DNA from: Promethearchaeota archaeon
GTDB taxonomy: Archaea; Asgardarchaeota; Lokiarchaeia; Sigyniarchaeales; SOKP01
Assembly (NCBI GenBank): GCA_048940445.1
Contig: JBHLON010000047.1
Location: 1-19,261 of the forward strand
Length of the DNA: 19,261 bases
Direction: 5' to 3'
In this document: one piece after another, positions 1 to 15,333 of the stretch
Layout: each line of letters opens with the position of its first letter
How positions within the stretch are numbered: position 1 is the first letter of the stretch
Notes under the pieces: generated by a model
Seen by the model: the letters and a program-made list of their open reading frames with translations, nothing else
Databases searched by the model: none
What the model was told of the DNA's origin: nothing
Translations under genes and position numbers: made by a program

Positions 1-545
1 CCAACTCCATCTTCTGGCTTTAATATAATTGGAGTATTGAATTGTCTAAATTTATTAATTATGAAGTTAACACTATACTGTTCATGCTCAAAAGGAATTA
101 AAAATGTTGGTGGAGTATTCATTTTATTCTCTTGAAAAAAGGTGAAGGTTTTTAATTTTGAACTTCCTATTCTAATTCCTTTTAAATTAACACTTAAAAC
201 TGTACTATTATTGTCCAAGGCAATTTTTGTTAACGAATATAGAATTTTTGAAAATTCGGGTGCAATAATAAAGCAGAATTCATTCTTTCTAACACAATCC
301 TTAAACTTCTTAAAAAATTTATCAGATTTCTGAATTACATTTATAAAATCGGCTTCTATATATCTTGATAATAATGCGATGCGAGAGTCTAAAAATGTTT
401 CAATTTCATAGTCCAGATTTTTAAAATCAGCCACAATTGACCTTAGCATTCCATATCCTTCAGCAAAAAGAGAATCTGGAATTTCAACTTGATTAAATCC
501 TCCTCCAGTGACAAATTCTATGATAAAAATTCTGTTTTTCTTCAT
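1..545 (-). CDS. ATP-grasp ligase, MfnD (tyramine--L-glutamate ligase)-like; N-terminal part, truncated at window edge
   Basis: Not in the ORF track. Manual translation from ATG at 545 stays open to base 1: MKKNRIFIIEFVTGGGFNQVEIPDSLFAEGYGMLRSIVADF...CFIIAPEFS...SSKLKTF...TPPT...PIILKPEDGVG. The EF..G / EG..ML / IIAPE / KP.DG.G pattern fits this ATP-grasp family. Confidence 0.75.
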   Translation of the reverse strand, partial: MKKNRIFIIEFVTGGGFNQVEIPDSLFAEGYGMLRSIVADFKNLDYEIETFLDSRIALLSRYIEADFINVIQKSDKFFKKFKDCVRKNEFCFIIAPEFSKILYSLTKIALDNNSTVLSVNLKGIRIGSSKLKTFTFFQENKMNTPPTFLIPFEHEQYSVNFIINKFRQFNTPIILKPEDGV

Positions 546-678
546 AACTTTTTGAATATTTTTTGATCAGAATTTTATAGATCTAGTTGTAATTAAAACA
601 TTTTTATAGATTAGTTTTAAAATGATGATTTAATATTTTAATTAACTTAAATTTAACAAAAACCTATTGAAGGAGAAA

Positions 679-1920
679 ATGTCTACTTTTTTTACAGAAG
701 AGTTAATGCAAAGAATTCGTTATTTGCATTTTAAAATTAAAAAATTAGAAGAAGCTTTAGAAAAAGAGGAAGAACATTTCAGTGTTGATGATTTGAATCT
801 TATTTTGGAATATACTAAAATATTAAATATAAATTATCAGAACCAAAATCAATACGATATATTAAAAAAATTAGATATTACTTCCTCATTCTTTGACCCA
901 CTTGAAAATAATCGTGAAATTGACATAAAAGATATAATGTTTGAATGTGCTCGTGTTTTATGGGTTTTATCTAGAGCCTATTCACAGTTATCAGAGAAGT
1001 TTGAAGAAGATGAGGAATGGGAAAATGCTATTATTGCAATGGCTGAAAGTAGTAAATATTATAAAACATCGGCTTATTTCAGCGCTGCAGTAACCCAGCA
1101 ACCAGATCTGGGTAGTTCTCTAAACTCAGAAAACCTTGAGTTAAATTCAGAAGAAACTCGTATATTAGCACAAAGCATTGCGGCATTATGGGAAGAACAT
1201 AAGAGTAACATTTATTTTGCCTCAAAACTTTATGCTGGTTTAAGTGCATTATCTAAAAGGGTTTTTTATTTAAAGAAGCATGATGAAAAAAAGAAATATC
1301 AATTGAGAGCCCAATTTCATTTTGATATGGGGAAATCATGCTATTTAAAGGCACTTGCTTCATTAGAATCATCGATTACGTCTATCAATAAAGAAAAAGT
1401 TAAAAAATTACAGCAAAAGGCTAATTTTTACTTTATTAAAGCTAAAGAAATTTGGGACGATATGCTCAAATTAATTGCAGGTTTATCTGAAGATGATCAG
1501 GAAAGTATTAAATTGAATCTATCTATTGTAGAGGATCAAATAAAAAATAATGAAGTAGAAACTTTGCAATATGAAGAAATCAAGAAAATTCAAGATCCTG
1601 AACCTATTGTGATAATTCCTGAAAATTTAGCACCGTTTGTTCCAAAAAATGTAATATATCTTACCAAATTTGTACCTAAAGATTTAAACATAAAGAGATT
1701 TAAATCTTTCCAAAGAAAGAAGTTAGAACAAAAAATTCCATATAGTAAGCGAGAAAAATTAAATGATAAGAAGGCGGGAATCGTTAGAACGATAAATGAA
1801 TTGAAATCTTTAAGGGAAAATAATGAAATCGATTTAGAAAAGTTTGCTGAACTTATGGAAAGATATTCTACTAAACTTAAGATGATTGATACTGCAATTG
1901 AGAAAATTACTAAACAATAA
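679..1920 (+). CDS. Helical protein; putative Bro1/ALIX-like domain with C-terminal steadiness-box-like module
   Basis: Long ORF. ATG at 679 follows AAGGAG (670-675), so it is preferred over TTG at 667. Contains FFDP...DIMFECARVLWVLSRAYSQLS and a C-terminal GIVRTINELK...EIDLEKF. The gene is secure; the domain call is by eye. Confidence 0.6.
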   Translation: MSTFFTEELMQRIRYLHFKIKKLEEALEKEEEHFSVDDLNLILEYTKILNINYQNQNQYDILKKLDITSSFFDPLENNREIDIKDIMFECARVLWVLSRAYSQLSEKFEEDEEWENAIIAMAESSKYYKTSAYFSAAVTQQPDLGSSLNSENLELNSEETRILAQSIAALWEEHKSNIYFASKLYAGLSALSKRVFYLKKHDEKKKYQLRAQFHFDMGKSCYLKALASLESSITSINKEKVKKLQQKANFYFIKAKEIWDDMLKLIAGLSEDDQESIKLNLSIVEDQIKNNEVETLQYEEIKKIQDPEPIVIIPENLAPFVPKNVIYLTKFVPKDLNIKRFKSFQRKKLEQKIPYSKREKLNDKKAGIVRTINELKSLRENNEIDLEKFAELMERYSTKLKMIDTAIEKITKQ

Positions 1921-1929
1921 GTTTTAACA

Positions 1930-2403
1930 TTATTTATTAAAATATAATTTTCGGTTTTTTTCTAATTCAAATATCCTTTCAGTCTCCTCTTTAAAAATTA
2001 GATCGTAGACTTCTTTAAATATCACCCCTAATAGTAATGTTTCGATAAATATTATAAGAACTGTTATTAAAATCTGTAAATTGTGTAAATCTATAAATAA
2101 TAAAAAAATAAATGCAATTAGGTTTGGAATAATTAATAAAGATATTATGCCAATTCTCCTTGCAAAATTTAATATATTTTTAATGCCTGATTTAAAAATA
2201 AATTTTAGTCGTAAGGCTTCTATTAAATAATATAAACAGAAAATCATATTAATACCTGTTATAAATATAATAAGGTCTCTTTCGGAAGGCTCTAGGGCAA
2301 TATATGGTTTTAAAATAATTGAAACAAATAGAAATGCAAATGAAAAAAAGAATAAAACAAGCGTTAGTGATAAAAACCCATCATGAAAATCTTTATAATC
2401 CAT
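1930..2403 (-). CDS. Hypothetical membrane protein (about 4 TM helices)
   Basis: 157-aa ORF with four hydrophobic segments and a charged C-terminal tail. Confidence 0.75.
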   Translation of the reverse strand: MDYKDFHDGFLSLTLVLFFFSFAFLFVSIILKPYIALEPSERDLIIFITGINMIFCLYYLIEALRLKFIFKSGIKNILNFARRIGIISLLIIPNLIAFIFLLFIDLHNLQILITVLIIFIETLLLGVIFKEVYDLIFKEETERIFELEKNRKLYFNK

Positions 2404-5550: not shown

Positions 5551-6765
5551 ATGAACCCTAAACAAGGAAAGCCCGATGAAGAAAATAATGAATTATTACA
5601 TACTAAAAACTTGACAGGGTCATCTTCAACTGCTAAATTGATAGAAGAATATGGCATCAATCCGATTAAAACTCCTGTAGTATTAAAGCTAAATGCGTAT
5701 AAAAGAATGGTTGGATATGCAATAAGATATGCAAATAATAAATTAGCAACAAGAAACTGGCGTGAAGTTTATGGGATTTTAATTGGATCTATTGAAGAAA
5801 ATAAAAGAGTTATCGTAAAAGATGCTATTCCCATGGTGGCAGGTGACCGAGCCGGAGTGAAATATGAAAGCAAACAATATGTTGATATGGCTCAGATTGA
5901 TGAATCTATATTCGAAAAATCTATTCAAGACAAAAAAAGTGATTTTATAATTGGATGGTGGCATTCTCATCCCGGTTTCAAATTTTTCTTTAGCCCAGTA
6001 GATTGCTTAACTCAATTGGGCTATCAAATTCCAAATCCGTTTGCCGTAGGTTTAATTTTCGATCATTGTGAATTAAAGTCATCTGATTTTTTTCTCGGAA
6101 TTGCAGCATTAAGAATATTAAATCCAGATAAAGGCATGTTCTCCACATACGATTTTACAGATTTGTCTTATGAATACGATGAAAAAAAGATGTTTAAAAA
6201 AGTAGAGCCTATATTCACTGATTTAGATAATAAGATCGAAAAAGTTTTAAAAGAGATAACATTAATAGATGAAATTTTACGTAAAAGATACTTAGCTCAA
6301 CTTCAGAGGAATTATGGTTTAATCTTGGTGCCTAAAAGTGACATTAAAGTCACGGATAATGAAGAAGAGGCTGAAGAAGATGAAAAATACCTGTATGAAT
6401 GGGATCCTGAATTTTTTAAAAAAAGCTATAGAATACCAAAATTTAGAGAAAAAGTAGAAGAACGAATTAAAGAATATGAAGATAAATTGCTTGAAATTAA
6501 AGATGATAATTCTAAGTTTAAACAAAGGAAGGAAAAATTTAAGAAGAAGATTCAAGCATTATTGTCAAAACCTAATGATTGGTATAATAAAATAATAGAA
6601 GAATTTACTAAACGAATAGAAATAATCTCTCCTTATTTTGAATATTTAGATACTGATGAGCGAAAAATAATCGAGCATTTCGAATCTAGGAGTTTTGAAT
6701 ATCAAACAATTTTAGATGATTTAAATAAGCGCTCAGAATTTAATAGAAATTTTGAATCTATATAA
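5551..6765 (+). CDS. JAMM/MPN+ metalloprotease (Rpn11/CSN5/BRCC36-like) with long helical C-terminal extension
   Basis: EVYGILIG (catalytic Glu) and GWWHSHPGFKFFFSPVD (H-S-H-x7-S-x2-D). The C-terminal half is charged and coiled-coil-like. Confidence 0.9.
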   Translation: MNPKQGKPDEENNELLHTKNLTGSSSTAKLIEEYGINPIKTPVVLKLNAYKRMVGYAIRYANNKLATRNWREVYGILIGSIEENKRVIVKDAIPMVAGDRAGVKYESKQYVDMAQIDESIFEKSIQDKKSDFIIGWWHSHPGFKFFFSPVDCLTQLGYQIPNPFAVGLIFDHCELKSSDFFLGIAALRILNPDKGMFSTYDFTDLSYEYDEKKMFKKVEPIFTDLDNKIEKVLKEITLIDEILRKRYLAQLQRNYGLILVPKSDIKVTDNEEEAEEDEKYLYEWDPEFFKKSYRIPKFREKVEERIKEYEDKLLEIKDDNSKFKQRKEKFKKKIQALLSKPNDWYNKIIEEFTKRIEIISPYFEYLDTDERKIIEHFESRSFEYQTILDDLNKRSEFNRNFESI

Positions 6766-8236: not shown

Positions 8237-8632
8237 CTATCTCCTAGGAGCCTTAAAAATTTTGGTATTTAATCCATTATTCGCTTTTAGTATAATTTCT
8301 AAGTTGCTAGATATTTTTCCAATCAAATTTACCTTATTCGGCATTATGGAGTTTTCTAGAACTAATATTAATTCGTCTGATTTTGGATTGTAGATGATAT
8401 CTCCCTTCTCTACTTCTTTTTTAGATTTTGGATTCATTCCTTTAAAGATTTCCACGCCTGGAAGAATCCAATACTTTTTTGATCCAAAACTAAATCTCCC
8501 TCTTAATATAATGGGTAATTTATCTAATATAGCATCAGCAGATAAAGGAGCAAAATATCTATCAATATTTCCTTCTAAGCTACCAATTCCAAAAAGATCA
8601 ATCTTAATGGGTATTTGTCCACTATCAGACAT
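8237..8632 (-). CDS. Cyclophilin-like fold protein (small archaeal family)
   Basis: R.FAPLS.DAI...LPI...and V.KGDI.Y.P....L...N.IGKI pattern. Confidence 0.65.
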   Translation of the reverse strand: MSDSGQIPIKIDLFGIGSLEGNIDRYFAPLSADAILDKLPIILRGRFSFGSKKYWILPGVEIFKGMNPKSKKEVEKGDIIYNPKSDELILVLENSIMPNKVNLIGKISSNLEIILKANNGLNTKIFKAPRR

Positions 8633-8705
8633 GGTTTATATATAAAATCAATTTTGATATTTATATTATTTCAAATTTTCTTAATTGTTAATTATTCACC
8701 TTAAT

Positions 8706-8720
8706 AAAAAGATTTAAATA
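8706..8720 (+). promoter_or_regulatory. Archaeal BRE/TATA promoter for the candidate ncRNA
   Basis: Purine-rich AAAAAGA followed by TTTAAATA (8713-8720). This places a transcription start at about 8743-8744, the first base of the terminal helix. Confidence 0.55.
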
Positions 8721-8742
8721 GTCTTTTCATCATTTAATTTAT

Positions 8743-9226
8743 TGGACAATAGTATTGCATAGGATTTTGATACAAATAATACGGTCCACCATAGAAAAAG
8801 TTGTGACCATCTAATAAAGAAGATTTAAGCAATGATTTTTTTTTTGATACTTAAGGATTTAATGACGACATTGAATCCAATTGCTTAGTATTTTTGAATA
8901 ACGTTCATTCATCAAGAGTTTATATACGTTCTTGTAAATTATAATAAGCATCTATAATCATAAAAGCACCCGGGTAAATTAACACTCTGGAGCATTTAAC
9001 AAGATAATAAGTATTTTTTCCGTTGAGTAATTTATACTGAGGAGCAATTATAAAATGAGTTCTTGTGGTATTGAGTGGTTTTTTTGATACTCGAGACAAC
9101 AAAACGAAAATGCTCTTTAAAGAATTCCGTTTTCCCAATAGAAGCTTTGATCCAGGAGGGAATTCATAGGAATACATGTTTCCTTTGAAACATTTCTTCG
9201 GAGGTTATCGGAGCTACTATTGTCCA
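8743..9226 (+). ncRNA. Candidate large structured non-coding RNA of unknown family (~485 nt)
   Basis: Perfect 12-bp terminal pairing TGGACAATAGTA (8743-8754) / TACTATTGTCCA (9215-9226). Several internal helices include G-U pairs, and there is a C(UUCG)G loop at 9196-9201. A TATA box lies upstream and a T-tract downstream. No credible ORF covers the region. Confidence 0.65.
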
Positions 9227-13931: not shown

Positions 13932-15290
13932 TTATTTCATTAATTCTCTCAATAACATTGTTGCGTAAGATCCTCGTTGAAGTGAGAATTCTAATCTTAA
14001 TTTCATTTTACCTTGAAAAACTTCATCTTTAGTGAATTCTAAAAGTTTCAAACCATTAGGTTTAACGATCATTGATCGAAAAGCACCTTTAAATTCAAAT
14101 TCTCTTAATAAGTTATTGTTAAATACCTCTTCATCTATTTGCTCCATCATATATATTTCTTTAATTAATTCATTCATTAGTGGAAATTTACTTAAATCGG
14201 TATCATATCCTATTAATGGGATTACAATAGCAGCATGGTTTAACCTTAAGGCTTCTTTTAAGTGTCTATCATAAAGTCCTCCATATTTATATACTATCTG
14301 AGTACATTGTCCATTTACATCATCTAAAATACTAATTAGATCCCCTTTAATCGGTTTTAGCAACGGATATCCTTTTTTGATTCTTAATGATAGCATTTTA
14401 TTAAATAGATAGGATTGAAAAGAACTAATTAATAATTTTTTCAAATAATTAGGTAATTTATTTACCGCTCCTTTATAATCTCCCTTGTTCTCAATTAAAT
14501 GCTTAATCATTATCTTTTCATAATTTAAGCTAGCAGGAAAATCATTGTAAGCCTTTTCAAGATCACCAGTTTTCGCTAATTCATTTCGTACATTTTGTGA
14601 TATATCCATCTCTGTAGAATATGTATTAACTACGTATTCATCAAAAGCTTCTTTGAATTTTCCCTCTAATAAAAATTTACCAATAAGATGGGAATTGGGC
14701 CTAAAAGTGCCAAATCTTTGGAGCCCAAAATAGTTGGGAAAACCTTGATTTTTAAGTACTTTAAAGATTTTTTGAATTCTGTTTAAAGGATTATTTGCAT
14801 TTTCAATATTCCTAATTATAATTACAAAATGATTGCCCCAATGGCTTCCTAATTTTACAGATCTTCTTGATGAATGCACATTTCTTAGAAAAATGTCTCT
14901 AATTTTTAAATTTCTAAGTCTATCTACATAATCTCCCTTTATGGAAAACTTTTGAATACTTATAGAACATTTGTCCTTTAATCCCGAATAAGAAATTAAG
15001 TCTGCAGGTATATTTAAAGCATCACTTAGAAGTTCAATAGCTTCAAAAGTTTCTTTATTTATTTTGATTAGATTAAACGTTGTATACTTGTCTTTTGAGT
15101 CTTCTGAAAACGACCTTGTATCATCATACTTTAAATGAAGAACATAGCCTTTTTCATCGATTTCTTTGACAATAAAGTCCTTGGAAGAATTTTTATATAG
15201 TCCCTGAATTCCTTTAATTTTTGAGCTGGAATAAATATCTATAGATACAAACTTCTCAACCTCTTTTTCATCATTGTTTTTGAATGTTAT
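13932..15290 (-). CDS. truD: tRNA pseudouridine(13) synthase TruD
   Basis: The frame is open upstream of the track's GTG (14879) to a stop at 15321-15323. The extension carries K.SKDFIVKEI and the catalytic YSGLKDK. Downstream are GNHF.I.IR, FPNYFGLQRFG and F.L.RGSYAT..LRE. The start is uncertain because no canonical start codon is in frame. Confidence 0.93.
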   Translation of the reverse strand: MTFKNNDEKEVEKFVSIDIYSSSKIKGIQGLYKNSSKDFIVKEIDEKGYVLHLKYDDTRSFSEDSKDKYTTFNLIKINKETFEAIELLSDALNIPADLISYSGLKDKCSISIQKFSIKGDYVDRLRNLKIRDIFLRNVHSSRRSVKLGSHWGNHFVIIIRNIENANNPLNRIQKIFKVLKNQGFPNYFGLQRFGTFRPNSHLIGKFLLEGKFKEAFDEYVVNTYSTEMDISQNVRNELAKTGDLEKAYNDFPASLNYEKIMIKHLIENKGDYKGAVNKLPNYLKKLLISSFQSYLFNKMLSLRIKKGYPLLKPIKGDLISILDDVNGQCTQIVYKYGGLYDRHLKEALRLNHAAIVIPLIGYDTDLSKFPLMNELIKEIYMMEQIDEEVFNNNLLREFEFKGAFRSMIVKPNGLKLLEFTKDEVFQGKMKLRLEFSLQRGSYATMLLRELMK

Positions 15291-15333
15291 CGTCGATTTA
15301 TCACGTCTGTTATGTACTTTTTATGAAATTTAT

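Follow-up and report, generated by a model that had tools for sequence, protein, structure and literature searches.

Among the hallmarks of the membrane-scission pathway in eukaryotes are Bro1/ALIX proteins and the ESCRT-I headpiece. The link between ALIX and TSG101 joins two separate proteins—a PSAP motif binds the UEV domain—and the eukaryotic Bro1 protein brings no steadiness box to it; to our knowledge, no eukaryotic protein combines a Bro1 domain with a steadiness-box-type hairpin. On the ESCRT-I side, the steadiness box (SB; PF09454; TSG101, 6VME; yeast Vps23, 2F66, 2F6M, 2CAZ and 2P22) is a C-terminal antiparallel hairpin of about 55–60 residues, preceded by a UEV domain and a coiled-coil stalk. 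SB hairpins of Asgard Vps23 and Znr_CC_PH_SB proteins have been described, and the SB has already been related to the CdvA hairpin (both in Makarova et al. 2024, PMC10936438); the short proteins behind an earlier claim came from other lineages (PMC10307638, supplement). In the parts of the literature covered by our search, we found no paper on a Lokiarchaeial Bro1 domain or a Bro1–SB fusion, and a 'TPR + SB' entry in Figure 6B of PMC10936438 could correspond to the family described here. The present analysis concerns a stretch of 19,261 nucleotides from a Promethearchaeota archaeon (hereafter the window) and, within it, a gene whose product is predicted to join a Bro1 fold to an SB-type hairpin. 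Its parts and the two flanking genes are listed below, with residues numbered throughout on the 417-residue form that starts from a TTG at 667.

679..1920, + strand: gene of the Bro1-fold and hairpin protein, 413 residues from the ATG at 679
679..1647, + strand: Bro1-fold domain, residues ~5–327 (Foldseek, VIA-align), including a small β-hairpin at residues 74–86
1603..1644, + strand: conserved extended segment DPEPIVIIPENLAP, residues 313–326, inside the stretch that aligns to solved Bro1 structures (pLDDT ~87–90)
1648..1746, + strand: basic, K/R-rich linker, residues 328–360, probably flexible (pLDDT 43–52 over 331–360)
1747..1818, + strand: hairpin helix 1, residues 361–384 (AlphaFold2), with GIVRTI aligned to AIEDTI of TSG101
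1819..1833, + strand: hairpin turn, residues 385–389 (ENNEI, leading into IDL..F; AlphaFold2)
1834..1914, + strand: hairpin helix 2, residues 390–416 (AlphaFold2)
1930..2403, − strand: multi-pass membrane protein of 157 residues with no family match; convergent neighbour, given as context with no partnership implied
3..545, − strand: protein with a pre-ATP-grasp domain (PF18301); divergent neighbour, given as context

The open reading frame (667–1920, + strand) is opened by the TTG at 667, giving 417 residues, and closes with a stop codon at 1918–1920; the protein ends in ...AGIVRTINELKSLRENNEIDLEKFAELMERYSTKLKMIDTAIEKITKQ. Translation likely starts at the ATG at 679, because the homologues are 413 residues long. 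More than 700 homologues were found, mostly of 409–417 residues, all of them annotated as hypothetical and all from Lokiarchaeota/Promethearchaeota, and searches of Pfam and NCBIfam with the protein and with its parts returned no family match, only noise (DUF5788, TopoV_HHH and Tsi2). The pre-ATP-grasp gene is syntenic in all 11 related loci (tblastn) and the gene of the membrane protein in 10 of the 11. ESCRT genes were found neither in the window nor adjoining the gene, here or in the 11 related loci, and we therefore dropped an operon argument: the conserved neighbours are the pre-ATP-grasp protein and the small membrane protein, both on the opposite strand.

The larger part of the protein, residues 1–327, is a genuine but divergent Bro1 domain. 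In a Foldseek search of the PDB, the best 21 matches were all Bro1 domains (E of 2e-6 to 4e-4), followed by a gap to an E of 7e-3. VIA-align gave Z scores of 21.3–22.8 to 16 Bro1-domain entries, with those of HD-PTP, ALIX, yeast Bro1 and BROX among them, over 274–299 aligned residues at an r.m.s.d. of 3.6–4.6 Å; the next fold scored a Z of 12. The likeness to the eukaryotic proteins (ALIX/PDCD6IP, 2OEW and 3C3O; Bro1p, 1ZB1; HD-PTP/PTPN23, 3RAU and 5MK0; BROX, 3R9M and 3UM3) resides in the N-terminal 327 residues and extends over nearly the entire Bro1 domain, its extended C-terminal segment included (model 1..327 against about 19..361 of the Bro1 chain), whereas sequence identity is only about 10–14%. 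The Pfam BRO1 model (PF03097; gathering threshold 35.1 bits) has no match in the protein or in a scan of the whole genome; among relatives below that threshold, one distant protein (P0152) scores 33.3 bits and another (L151) 19.5 bits. Sequence searches of the PDB with the protein, the family alignment, the hairpin alignment and P0152 found no ALIX, Bro1, TSG101 or Vps23; what they returned was limited to coiled coils and a TPR-like stretch.

At the end of this fold lies the stretch DPEPIVIIPENLAPFVP (residues 313–329), which a sequence-only reading of the locus had taken for a Pro-rich linker ahead of the hairpin. The sequence is indeed there; its role as a linker did not hold, as the segment belongs to the Bro1 fold: in the VIA-align comparison, residues up to about 327 match the extended C-terminal segment of Bro1 domains with solved structures. 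Across 21 diverse relatives, P313, P318, E319 and P326 never change and N320 almost never. What follows differs from ALIX, in which a V domain (ALIX_LYPXL_bnd) and a proline-rich tail come after the Bro1 domain: beyond residue 327 there is only a linker of 33 residues, in which AlphaFold2 places a single short helix (341–350), and one hairpin, and Pfam finds no V domain in the protein.

The hairpin occupies the last 57 residues, antiparallel and modelled on its own at a pLDDT of 97.1, and is encoded at 1747–1914, in keeping with the 1750–1920 first proposed for it. The TSG101 string quoted in that proposal proved exact: it corresponds to residues 30–73 of 6vme_B and also matches the yeast Vps23 structures 2f66, 2caz and 2p22. 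The gapless alignment drawn between the two stands as well, with 11 of 44 residues in common when counted by eye, and a Foldseek comparison with 6vme_B gives 24% identity over 55 columns. Against 350,542 PDB chains, the hairpin model alone ranked 2f6m_C, 6vme_B (TSG101), 6vme_I, 2caz_A and 2f66_A at the top; hairpins of the ESCRT-I headpiece (2f6m, 6vme, 2caz and 2f66) made up nine of the ten best matches, with TM scores of 0.87–0.94 and r.m.s.d. of 0.6–0.9 Å, at E values of 0.3–0.7 that, with a query this small, are not significant, so that only the ranking is informative. On this ranking, the solved structure closest to the modelled hairpin is the Vps23/TSG101 hairpin of the ESCRT-I headpiece, ESCRT-I hairpins being preferred to other hairpins.

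Profile comparisons reach the same relatives. As reference we used a set of Asgard proteins composed of UQ_con/UEV, coiled coil and Vps23_core, plus one Vps28, whose own best PDB match is TSG101 (6vme_B, E of 0.0074), with yeast Vps23 next. With hhalign, the family hairpin alignment (A2) matched 30 Asgard Vps23_core segments with a probability of 96.7% (P of 3.9e-10, score 48) over 54 gapless columns and a curated subset of them (A5) with 97.0% (P of 1.2e-10; scores of 48–50 across the two comparisons), in the same register as the earlier TSG101 alignment; the register of helix 1 follows from hhalign and from the alignment of the Asgard SBs to TSG101. The Znr_CC_PH_SB hairpin of the organism's own family (A4) was matched with 93.8% (P of 1.7e-7). 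In the hhalign alignments, the turn falls on the 'G-x-I' turn seen in SB and SHOCT-like hairpins, and the register common to the family and the SBs reads small residue-I-x-x-(T/L)-(I/L)..L, a turn G/N-x-I-D, then (F/Y)..L..(K)Y..(K)L. Searches in the opposite direction agree. An HMM of the Asgard SBs run against the 7,338 open reading frames of the genome ranked Znr_CC_PH_SB first (3e-12) and the Vps28 N terminus second (8.8e-6), two accepted carriers of an ESCRT-I SB, and third the hairpin of a paralogue of 504 residues (2.3e-4, HMM positions 9–66), with noise beginning at an E of about 0.2. When a full-length family profile was run against 151 Asgard genomes, its hairpin part (348–416) matched independently at E values of 3e-7 to 9e-6, and these matches include the UEV–coiled coil–SB Vps23 proteins of three loci (L044, L029 and L036; 3e-7 to 8e-6).

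The tail could in principle be an unrelated coiled-coil-like extension whose SB match is an artefact of composition or heptad periodicity. In favour of this stand a proteome rich in K and E as well as AT-rich, Pfam matches of the family hairpins that are all below threshold and spread across 39 families, and a family hairpin profile that misses TSG101 and Vps23 in the PDB sequence search. Controls weigh heavily on the other side: reversed profiles scored 15.7 and 18.6 and 30 column shuffles 6–15 (P of 0.002 to 0.76) against 48 for the real comparison, although composition is kept in all of them and periodicity too in the reversal. The reciprocal HMMER matches, the full-length gapless alignments in a single register and the agreement of the structural ranking also argue against chance, which we regard as very improbable. 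That the resemblance to the SB exceeds chance at the family level is confirmed. As judged by profile comparison, the hairpin is homologous to the C-terminal hairpins of Asgard Vps23 (UEV–coiled coil–SB) and of Znr_CC_PH_SB. The sequence-only reading, of a steadiness-box-like hairpin fused to a Bro1-like domain, was thus borne out for the hairpin by profiles (hhalign, the SB HMM and the reciprocal search) and by structure (Foldseek), and for the fusion by a Bro1 fold that Foldseek and VIA-align both recognize.

The signal is unevenly distributed within the family. The Asgard-SB HMM does not find the window protein itself at E < 50, and among the homologues listed, the close short forms reach about 0 bits at most. 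Pfam Vps23_core (PF09454; threshold 26.8 bits) has no match in the protein even at E ≤ 10, touches one of 21 family hairpins (E of 0.043) and, across the whole genome, finds Znr_CC_PH_SB alone, and weakly. The hairpin profile run against its own genome recovers itself, the paralogue and weak unrelated matches, with neither Vps28 nor Znr_CC_PH_SB among them, and its hhalign comparison with Vps28 is not significant. The short-form clade, to which the window protein belongs, has diverged most (for example, LRENN against LY.NN in relatives), and by these profiles it is the least SB-like; the SB signal originates in the long forms and in distant relatives, and the window protein is linked to it by transitivity.

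This unevenness bears on a rather unlikely yet substantial alternative, that the hairpin is a generic SHOCT-like oligomerisation module, so that the Bro1-like protein would form homodimers or homo-oligomers with no physical link to ESCRT-I, and that its likeness to the SB reflects a very simple shared design of helix, G-x-I-s-x-x-E-F/Y turn and helix. ALIX itself dimerises through its V domain. Like SHOCT (PF09851), SHOCT-like and CdvA (PF18822) hairpins, the window hairpin is a short helix-turn-helix at the extreme C terminus with the pattern L..L...G.I(S/T)..E(F/Y), and for the short-form clade the hhalign scores are equal, at 23.7–26.1 against SHOCT-like hairpins and 22.5–25.6 against SBs (P of 6e-5 to 4e-4). 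Below threshold, SHOCT and DUF1707 together touch six of the 21 family hairpins (SHOCT alone four, best E of 0.0036), compared with four for Vps23_core, Mod_r and CdvA together (CdvA alone two). Unrelated proteins end in hairpins of the same type (a Ribophorin I homologue, an IFT52-GIFT protein and a CDC48_N-CDC48_2-hairpin-Zn ribbon protein), and the lack of ESCRT genes nearby is also in line with a generic module. The SB and SHOCT-like profiles score 45.2 with each other, so that 'SB-like' may denote a wide class of hairpins and not membership of ESCRT-I. Against this, the SBs outscore the SHOCT-like set for the whole family (48 versus 37) and for the long and distant branches (38 versus 29 and 43 versus 33), and the SHOCT-like match of the family (36.9, P of 2.4e-8) was obtained with a set, built from PF09851 matches, that itself overlaps SB-type proteins such as the family of L078 and L152. 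Per-column similarity is 0.17 to the SHOCT-like hairpins and 0.43 to the SBs; helix 2 alone is 27 residues long, whereas the SHOCT model has 28 positions in total; and the SHOCT threshold (27 bits) is not reached by the window protein, which has no match. The ESCRT-I hairpins at the head of the structural ranking and the two SB carriers at the head of the proteome search likewise speak against a generic module. The suspicion that the segment scores only as SHOCT-like is half borne out: the family as a whole scores higher with the SBs, and the short-form clade scores equally with both, at about 22–26.

The full architecture occurs in all 25 genomes of the organism's Lokiarchaeial family, and a sample of 125 further Asgard genomes yielded it in none; another family has a related Bro1-like protein with a different C-terminal module. 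Because the fusion is found in one Asgard family only, the suggestion that it is ancestral lacks support. Its companion, a bypass of ESCRT-II, is speculation: the genome keeps Vps22 and Vps25, alongside Vps28, Znr_CC_PH_SB, two ESCRT-III proteins and Vps4. A fused UEV–coiled coil–SB Vps23 was not found in 40 genomes of the family, and a UEV (PF05743) scan of the organism's own genome gave no match. Weak coiled-coil matches to Mod_r/Vps37 (PF07200) in that genome were set aside because they also occur in 11 of 14 control genomes. We rejected the complementary pattern—Bro1–hairpin protein present, fused Vps23 absent—as proof of replacement, since a single lineage amounts to a single event. The family also includes long-form paralogues (HhH–Bro1–hairpin, 500–770 residues), one of them in the same genome (C20:33392-34906), which share the Bro1-like domain, the conserved PEN segment and the C-terminal hairpin at 42–52% identity over the whole shared length and differ in carrying a K-rich linker and, at the N terminus, a helix-hairpin-helix module (HHH_5). 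Their hairpins are the more SB-like, with 12–23 bits to the Asgard-SB HMM, compared with about 0 or less in the listed short forms.

On balance, the gene probably encodes a two-module ESCRT accessory protein of Asgard (Lokiarchaeial) archaea, its Bro1 domain directed to ESCRT-III and its SB-type hairpin serving for assembly with ESCRT-I-type partners. The analysis establishes both folds, the similarity at profile level and the distribution across lineages; every binding step is inferred. The Bro1 domain would dock onto an ESCRT-III subunit of the Snf7 type, and the hairpin would pack side by side with other helical hairpins, its likeliest partners being the SB hairpins of the genome's ESCRT-I-type proteins (the Vps28 N terminus and Znr_CC_PH_SB). 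A single polypeptide would then hold the link from ESCRT-I to Bro1 that eukaryotes build between TSG101 and ALIX. A complex prediction with the hairpin (A2), the Vps28 N terminus (A3, 1–115) and the Znr_CC_PH_SB C terminus (A4, 25–104) returned a score of 0.00, 'no answer', which weighs neither way.

The flexible basic linker might instead let the hairpin fold back on its own Bro1 domain and regulate access to the ESCRT-III-binding surface, for which autoinhibition by the proline-rich tail of ALIX is a loose analogue. The 33-residue low-confidence linker between the modules would allow it, and hydrophobic stripes that appear, from sequence, to be wider on both helices than a two-helix hairpin requires (L23/Y24 and L37/x38, A2 numbering) would be compatible with it. 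The hairpin is, however, confidently modelled alone (pLDDT 97), and the same hairpin type is carried by many unrelated N-terminal domains, so that a portable intermolecular module fits better; we consider such autoinhibition improbable.

Returning to the two-module accessory protein, a stronger version of it, unlikely as matters stand, starts from the absence of a fused UEV–coiled coil–SB Vps23 in the Lokiarchaeial family sampled. The Bro1–hairpin proteins would here take the place of Vps23 in an ESCRT-I-type headpiece with Vps28, beside or alternating with Znr_CC_PH_SB, and couple ESCRT-I directly to ESCRT-III. If this were true, they would mirror the eukaryotic TSG101–ALIX connection in a prokaryotic and covalent form, and the HhH-bearing paralogues might tie the same machinery to nucleic acid.

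Taken together, every genome sampled from one Lokiarchaeial family carries a full Bro1 fold fused to an SB-type hairpin, which shows that both modules existed and were recombining in Asgard archaea, the closest prokaryotic relatives of eukaryotes. The architecture provides a concrete, testable hypothesis for the route by which upstream ESCRT factors may reach ESCRT-III in this Lokiarchaeial lineage, and as these are small, soluble proteins with orthologues in cultured Lokiarchaeia, pull-downs and structures are feasible.

The sequence-only reading of this gene had described a Pro-rich linker and a TSG101-like C-terminal hairpin fused to a Bro1-like domain, and had proposed that the protein could assemble into an ESCRT-I-like core and recruit ESCRT-III directly, as an ancestral bypass of ESCRT-II; its sequence observation is confirmed and its interpretation is supported in part. 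The C-terminal end of the encoded protein, P0001, is exactly as reported, with DPEPIVIIPENLAPFVP at residues 313-329. The source of the window is an Asgard archaeon, judging by neighbouring genes for Alba, a thermosome subunit, PTH2 and TruD (Pfam scan) and by closest homologues labelled Lokiarchaeota or Promethearchaeota. P0001 is numbered here from a TTG at 667, but translation probably begins at the ATG at 679, since homologues are around 413 aa in length.

Features of the window around the gene
3-545, minus strand: pre-ATP-grasp gene, divergent, conserved neighbour
667-1920, plus strand: open reading frame of P0001, 417 aa
679-1920, plus strand: Bro1-hairpin gene, from the likely ATG start
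1930-2403, minus strand: gene for a 157-aa membrane protein, convergent, conserved neighbour

The order of the pre-ATP-grasp, Bro1-hairpin and membrane-protein genes is kept in 10-11 related genomes from several genera, with the stop codons of the latter two 9 bases apart. No ESCRT gene adjoins the Bro1-hairpin gene in the window or in related loci. Elsewhere in the window, 5551-6765 (+) encodes a 404-aa JAB/MPN (JAMM) protein whose C-terminal extension is long (Pfam scan), and the long intergenic stretch 8632-9217 contains a single ORF of 85 aa (8920-9177, -), which matches no family. The TruD frame at 13932-15320 (-) is open for 462 codons, the first ATG, GTG or TTG leaving a 315-aa product that aligns with Pfam TruD positions 115-412; with no common start codon within its N-terminal 147 codons, the frame is suggestive of either an atypical initiation codon or an error in the sequence.

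As a single query, P0001 gave no meaningful match to Pfam, NCBIfam or PDB sequences. Its close homologues (more than 700, about 74% identical) are all annotated as 'hypothetical', and only 57 family clusters, forming three groups, were retrieved when 1.8 billion representatives were searched exhaustively.

Groups of the Bro1-hairpin family
Short forms: about 410 aa, P0001-like
Long forms: 500-770 aa, N-terminal HHH_5 helix-hairpin-helix in most of those tested, K-rich linker in some
Distant branch: about 400 aa, 23-28% identity

The C-terminal hairpin is kept in every full-length member. A long paralogue of 504 aa is encoded in the same genome as P0001 (C20:33392-34906 (-), also L082 and L013:1432-2946 (-)); it combines an N-terminal HHH_5 module with the Bro1-like domain of the family and with a hairpin closer than that of P0001 to the steadiness box (SB), the C-terminal hairpin of the ESCRT-I subunit Vps23/TSG101 (Pfam Vps23_core). 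The product of the same-strand gene that follows it (L013:807-1349) has 180 aa, and two membrane helices are predicted at its N-terminal end.

Structure prediction decisively places the N-terminal domain of P0001 in the Bro1 fold. For an AlphaFold2 model from a 21-sequence family alignment (mean pLDDT 85.7), the best 21 Foldseek matches in the PDB are all Bro1 domains (yeast Bro1, HD-PTP, BROX and ALIX; E 2e-6 to 4e-4), and the next match lies only at E 7e-3. VIA-align superposes model residues 1..327 on nearly the whole Bro1 domain (Z 21.3-22.8, 274-299 residues aligned), the next fold reaching only Z 12. The fold thus agrees with the Bro1 family, whereas the sequence of P0001 stays below the Pfam BRO1 threshold and ESCRT-III binding is putative; P0152, a relative from the distant branch, reaches 33.3 bits, the cut-off being 35.1. 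Since the superposed range extends to residue 327, residues 313-326 (P313, P318, E319 and P326 invariant, N320 nearly so), previously read as the Pro-rich linker, are part of the Bro1 fold. The actual linker is the basic segment 328-360, of low model confidence, and it joins the Bro1 fold to the hairpin; the proposed fusion itself stands. P0001 is not of the ALIX type, as it lacks both the V domain and the proline-rich tail.

Several comparisons relate the family hairpin to SBs. The TSG101 string quoted in the earlier reading is exact (residues 30-73 of 6vme_B) and also retrieves yeast Vps23 core structures from the PDB. As a reference we used 30 segments matched by Pfam Vps23_core in 151 Asgard genomes; the proteins checked combine UQ_con/UEV, coiled coil and Vps23_core and are Vps23 orthologues, apart from one Vps28, and the reference profile finds TSG101 best in the PDB (E 0.0074), then yeast Vps23. 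Profile-profile alignment (hhalign) of the family hairpin with this set gives a probability of 96.7-97.0% (P 1e-10 to 4e-10) in an ungapped alignment of 54 columns and recovers the register proposed from sequence (GIVRTI = AIEDLL = AIEDTI). Chance resemblance is very improbable: the true score is 48, against 15.7 and 18.6 for reversed profiles and 6-15 for 30 column shuffles. When an HMM of the reference set (the SB HMM) scans the complete set of 7,338 ORFs in the genome unfiltered, P0001 itself has no match below E 50. That search ranks first a 704-aa protein of the Znr_CC_PH_SB type (3e-12), then the Vps28 N terminus (8.8e-6) and the hairpin of the 504-aa paralogue (2.3e-4, full-length alignment), with noise from E of about 0.2. 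Reciprocally, in a six-frame search of the 151 genomes, the hairpin part alone of the full-length family profile (positions 348-416) matches at E 3e-7 to 9e-6 targets that include the UEV-CC-SB Vps23 proteins of three loci (L044, L029 and L036). A hairpin-only model (58 residues, pLDDT 97.1) ranked against 350,542 PDB chains places 2f6m_C, 6vme_B (TSG101) and 6vme_I first to third and 2caz_A fifth; nine of the ten best matches are ESCRT-I headpiece hairpins (TM 0.87-0.94, rmsd 0.6-0.9 Å), of which only the ranking is informative because E values of 0.3-0.7 are not significant for so short a query.

Homo-oligomerisation through a generic SHOCT-like hairpin is a possible but less likely alternative, and the family groups bear on it differently. 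Short forms score 22-26 against SBs and 24-26 against an Asgard SHOCT-like set (hhalign), whereas long forms score 38 against 29 and distant forms 43 against 33. In bits against the SB HMM, the close short-form homologues listed reach about 0 or less, and long and distant forms 12-23. The two reference classes themselves share a mutual score of 45.2, and sub-threshold Pfam touches by family hairpins fall on SHOCT or DUF1707 six times and on Vps23_core, Mod_r or CdvA four times. The SB-like assignment holds for the family by profile, reciprocal search and structure ranking. In the short-form clade SB and SHOCT-like scores are equal; judged by sequence scores, this clade is the least SB-like, and the hairpin of P0001 itself is diverged. 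SBs have been described as portable helical hairpins on many Asgard multidomain proteins, related to the CdvA hairpin (Makarova et al., PMC10936438). The safest statement is that the family hairpin belongs to this class, within which it is nearest to Vps23-type SBs; it agrees with SBs in structure and profile but not at the Pfam threshold, and headpiece assembly, the defining SB function, is here predicted at most.

The same hairpin type ends two other proteins of this genome, both from eukaryote-signature families: a Ribophorin I homologue (C61:111013-112869 (-), L080, 618 aa; E 5.6e-4 against the Asgard SB HMM) and an IFT52-GIFT-domain protein (C27:670-2028 (+), L081, 452 aa; E 0.008). The hairpin profile also matches a 284-aa protein with CDC48_N, CDC48_2, an SB-like hairpin and a zinc ribbon (L152:1294-2148 (-)) in G058, a genome of another Asgard family.

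The full architecture occurs in every genome sampled from the window's own family (25 of 25, with 1-3 copies each), and the family profile found it in no other Asgard genome among 125 searched. In one other family, a Bro1-like protein of about 511-521 aa (Pfam BRO1 E 4.9e-4) ends in a different C-terminal module; its G058 copy (L151:1804-3339 (+), 511 aa) carries an acidic repeat and that module in place of the hairpin. By this distribution the fusion seems confined to one lineage and not ancestral as had been proposed. The window's own genome encodes Vps28, Znr_CC_PH_SB, Vps22, Vps25, two ESCRT-III proteins and Vps4. A search of this genome for a UEV domain found none. Across 40 genomes of its family a fused UEV-CC-SB Vps23 was likewise not found, and a Vps23 query there matches, through its SB part, only the Znr_CC_PH_SB hairpin. 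The 704-aa protein (C69:28880-30994 (+), or L008:8881-10995) is assigned to Znr_CC_PH_SB because it lies between ribosomal protein L35Ae and the second ESCRT-III gene, a context also present at the Lokiarchaeum GC14_75 locus (PMC10936438 supplement).

We found no published description of the Bro1-hairpin family in the literature searched; in one study (PMC10307638), 'Bro1' appears only as the top domain assignment for a few proteins, short among those looked at, in Hod-, Njord- and Thorarchaeia. The fusion of a Bro1 domain to an SB-class hairpin is a new combination of known modules, the two folds being joined in P0001 by a flexible basic linker. An intramolecular regulatory role for the hairpin, on the same chain as the Bro1 domain, is improbable. 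For Bro1 domains the binding target is the C-terminal helix of Snf7/CHMP4, and the ESCRT-I headpiece is built by side-by-side packing of SB hairpins. By analogy with these binding roles in known families, we lean towards P0001 being an adaptor, in which the Bro1 domain would engage ESCRT-III and the hairpin would assemble with further hairpins, with Vps28 and Znr_CC_PH_SB supplying the preferred partners.
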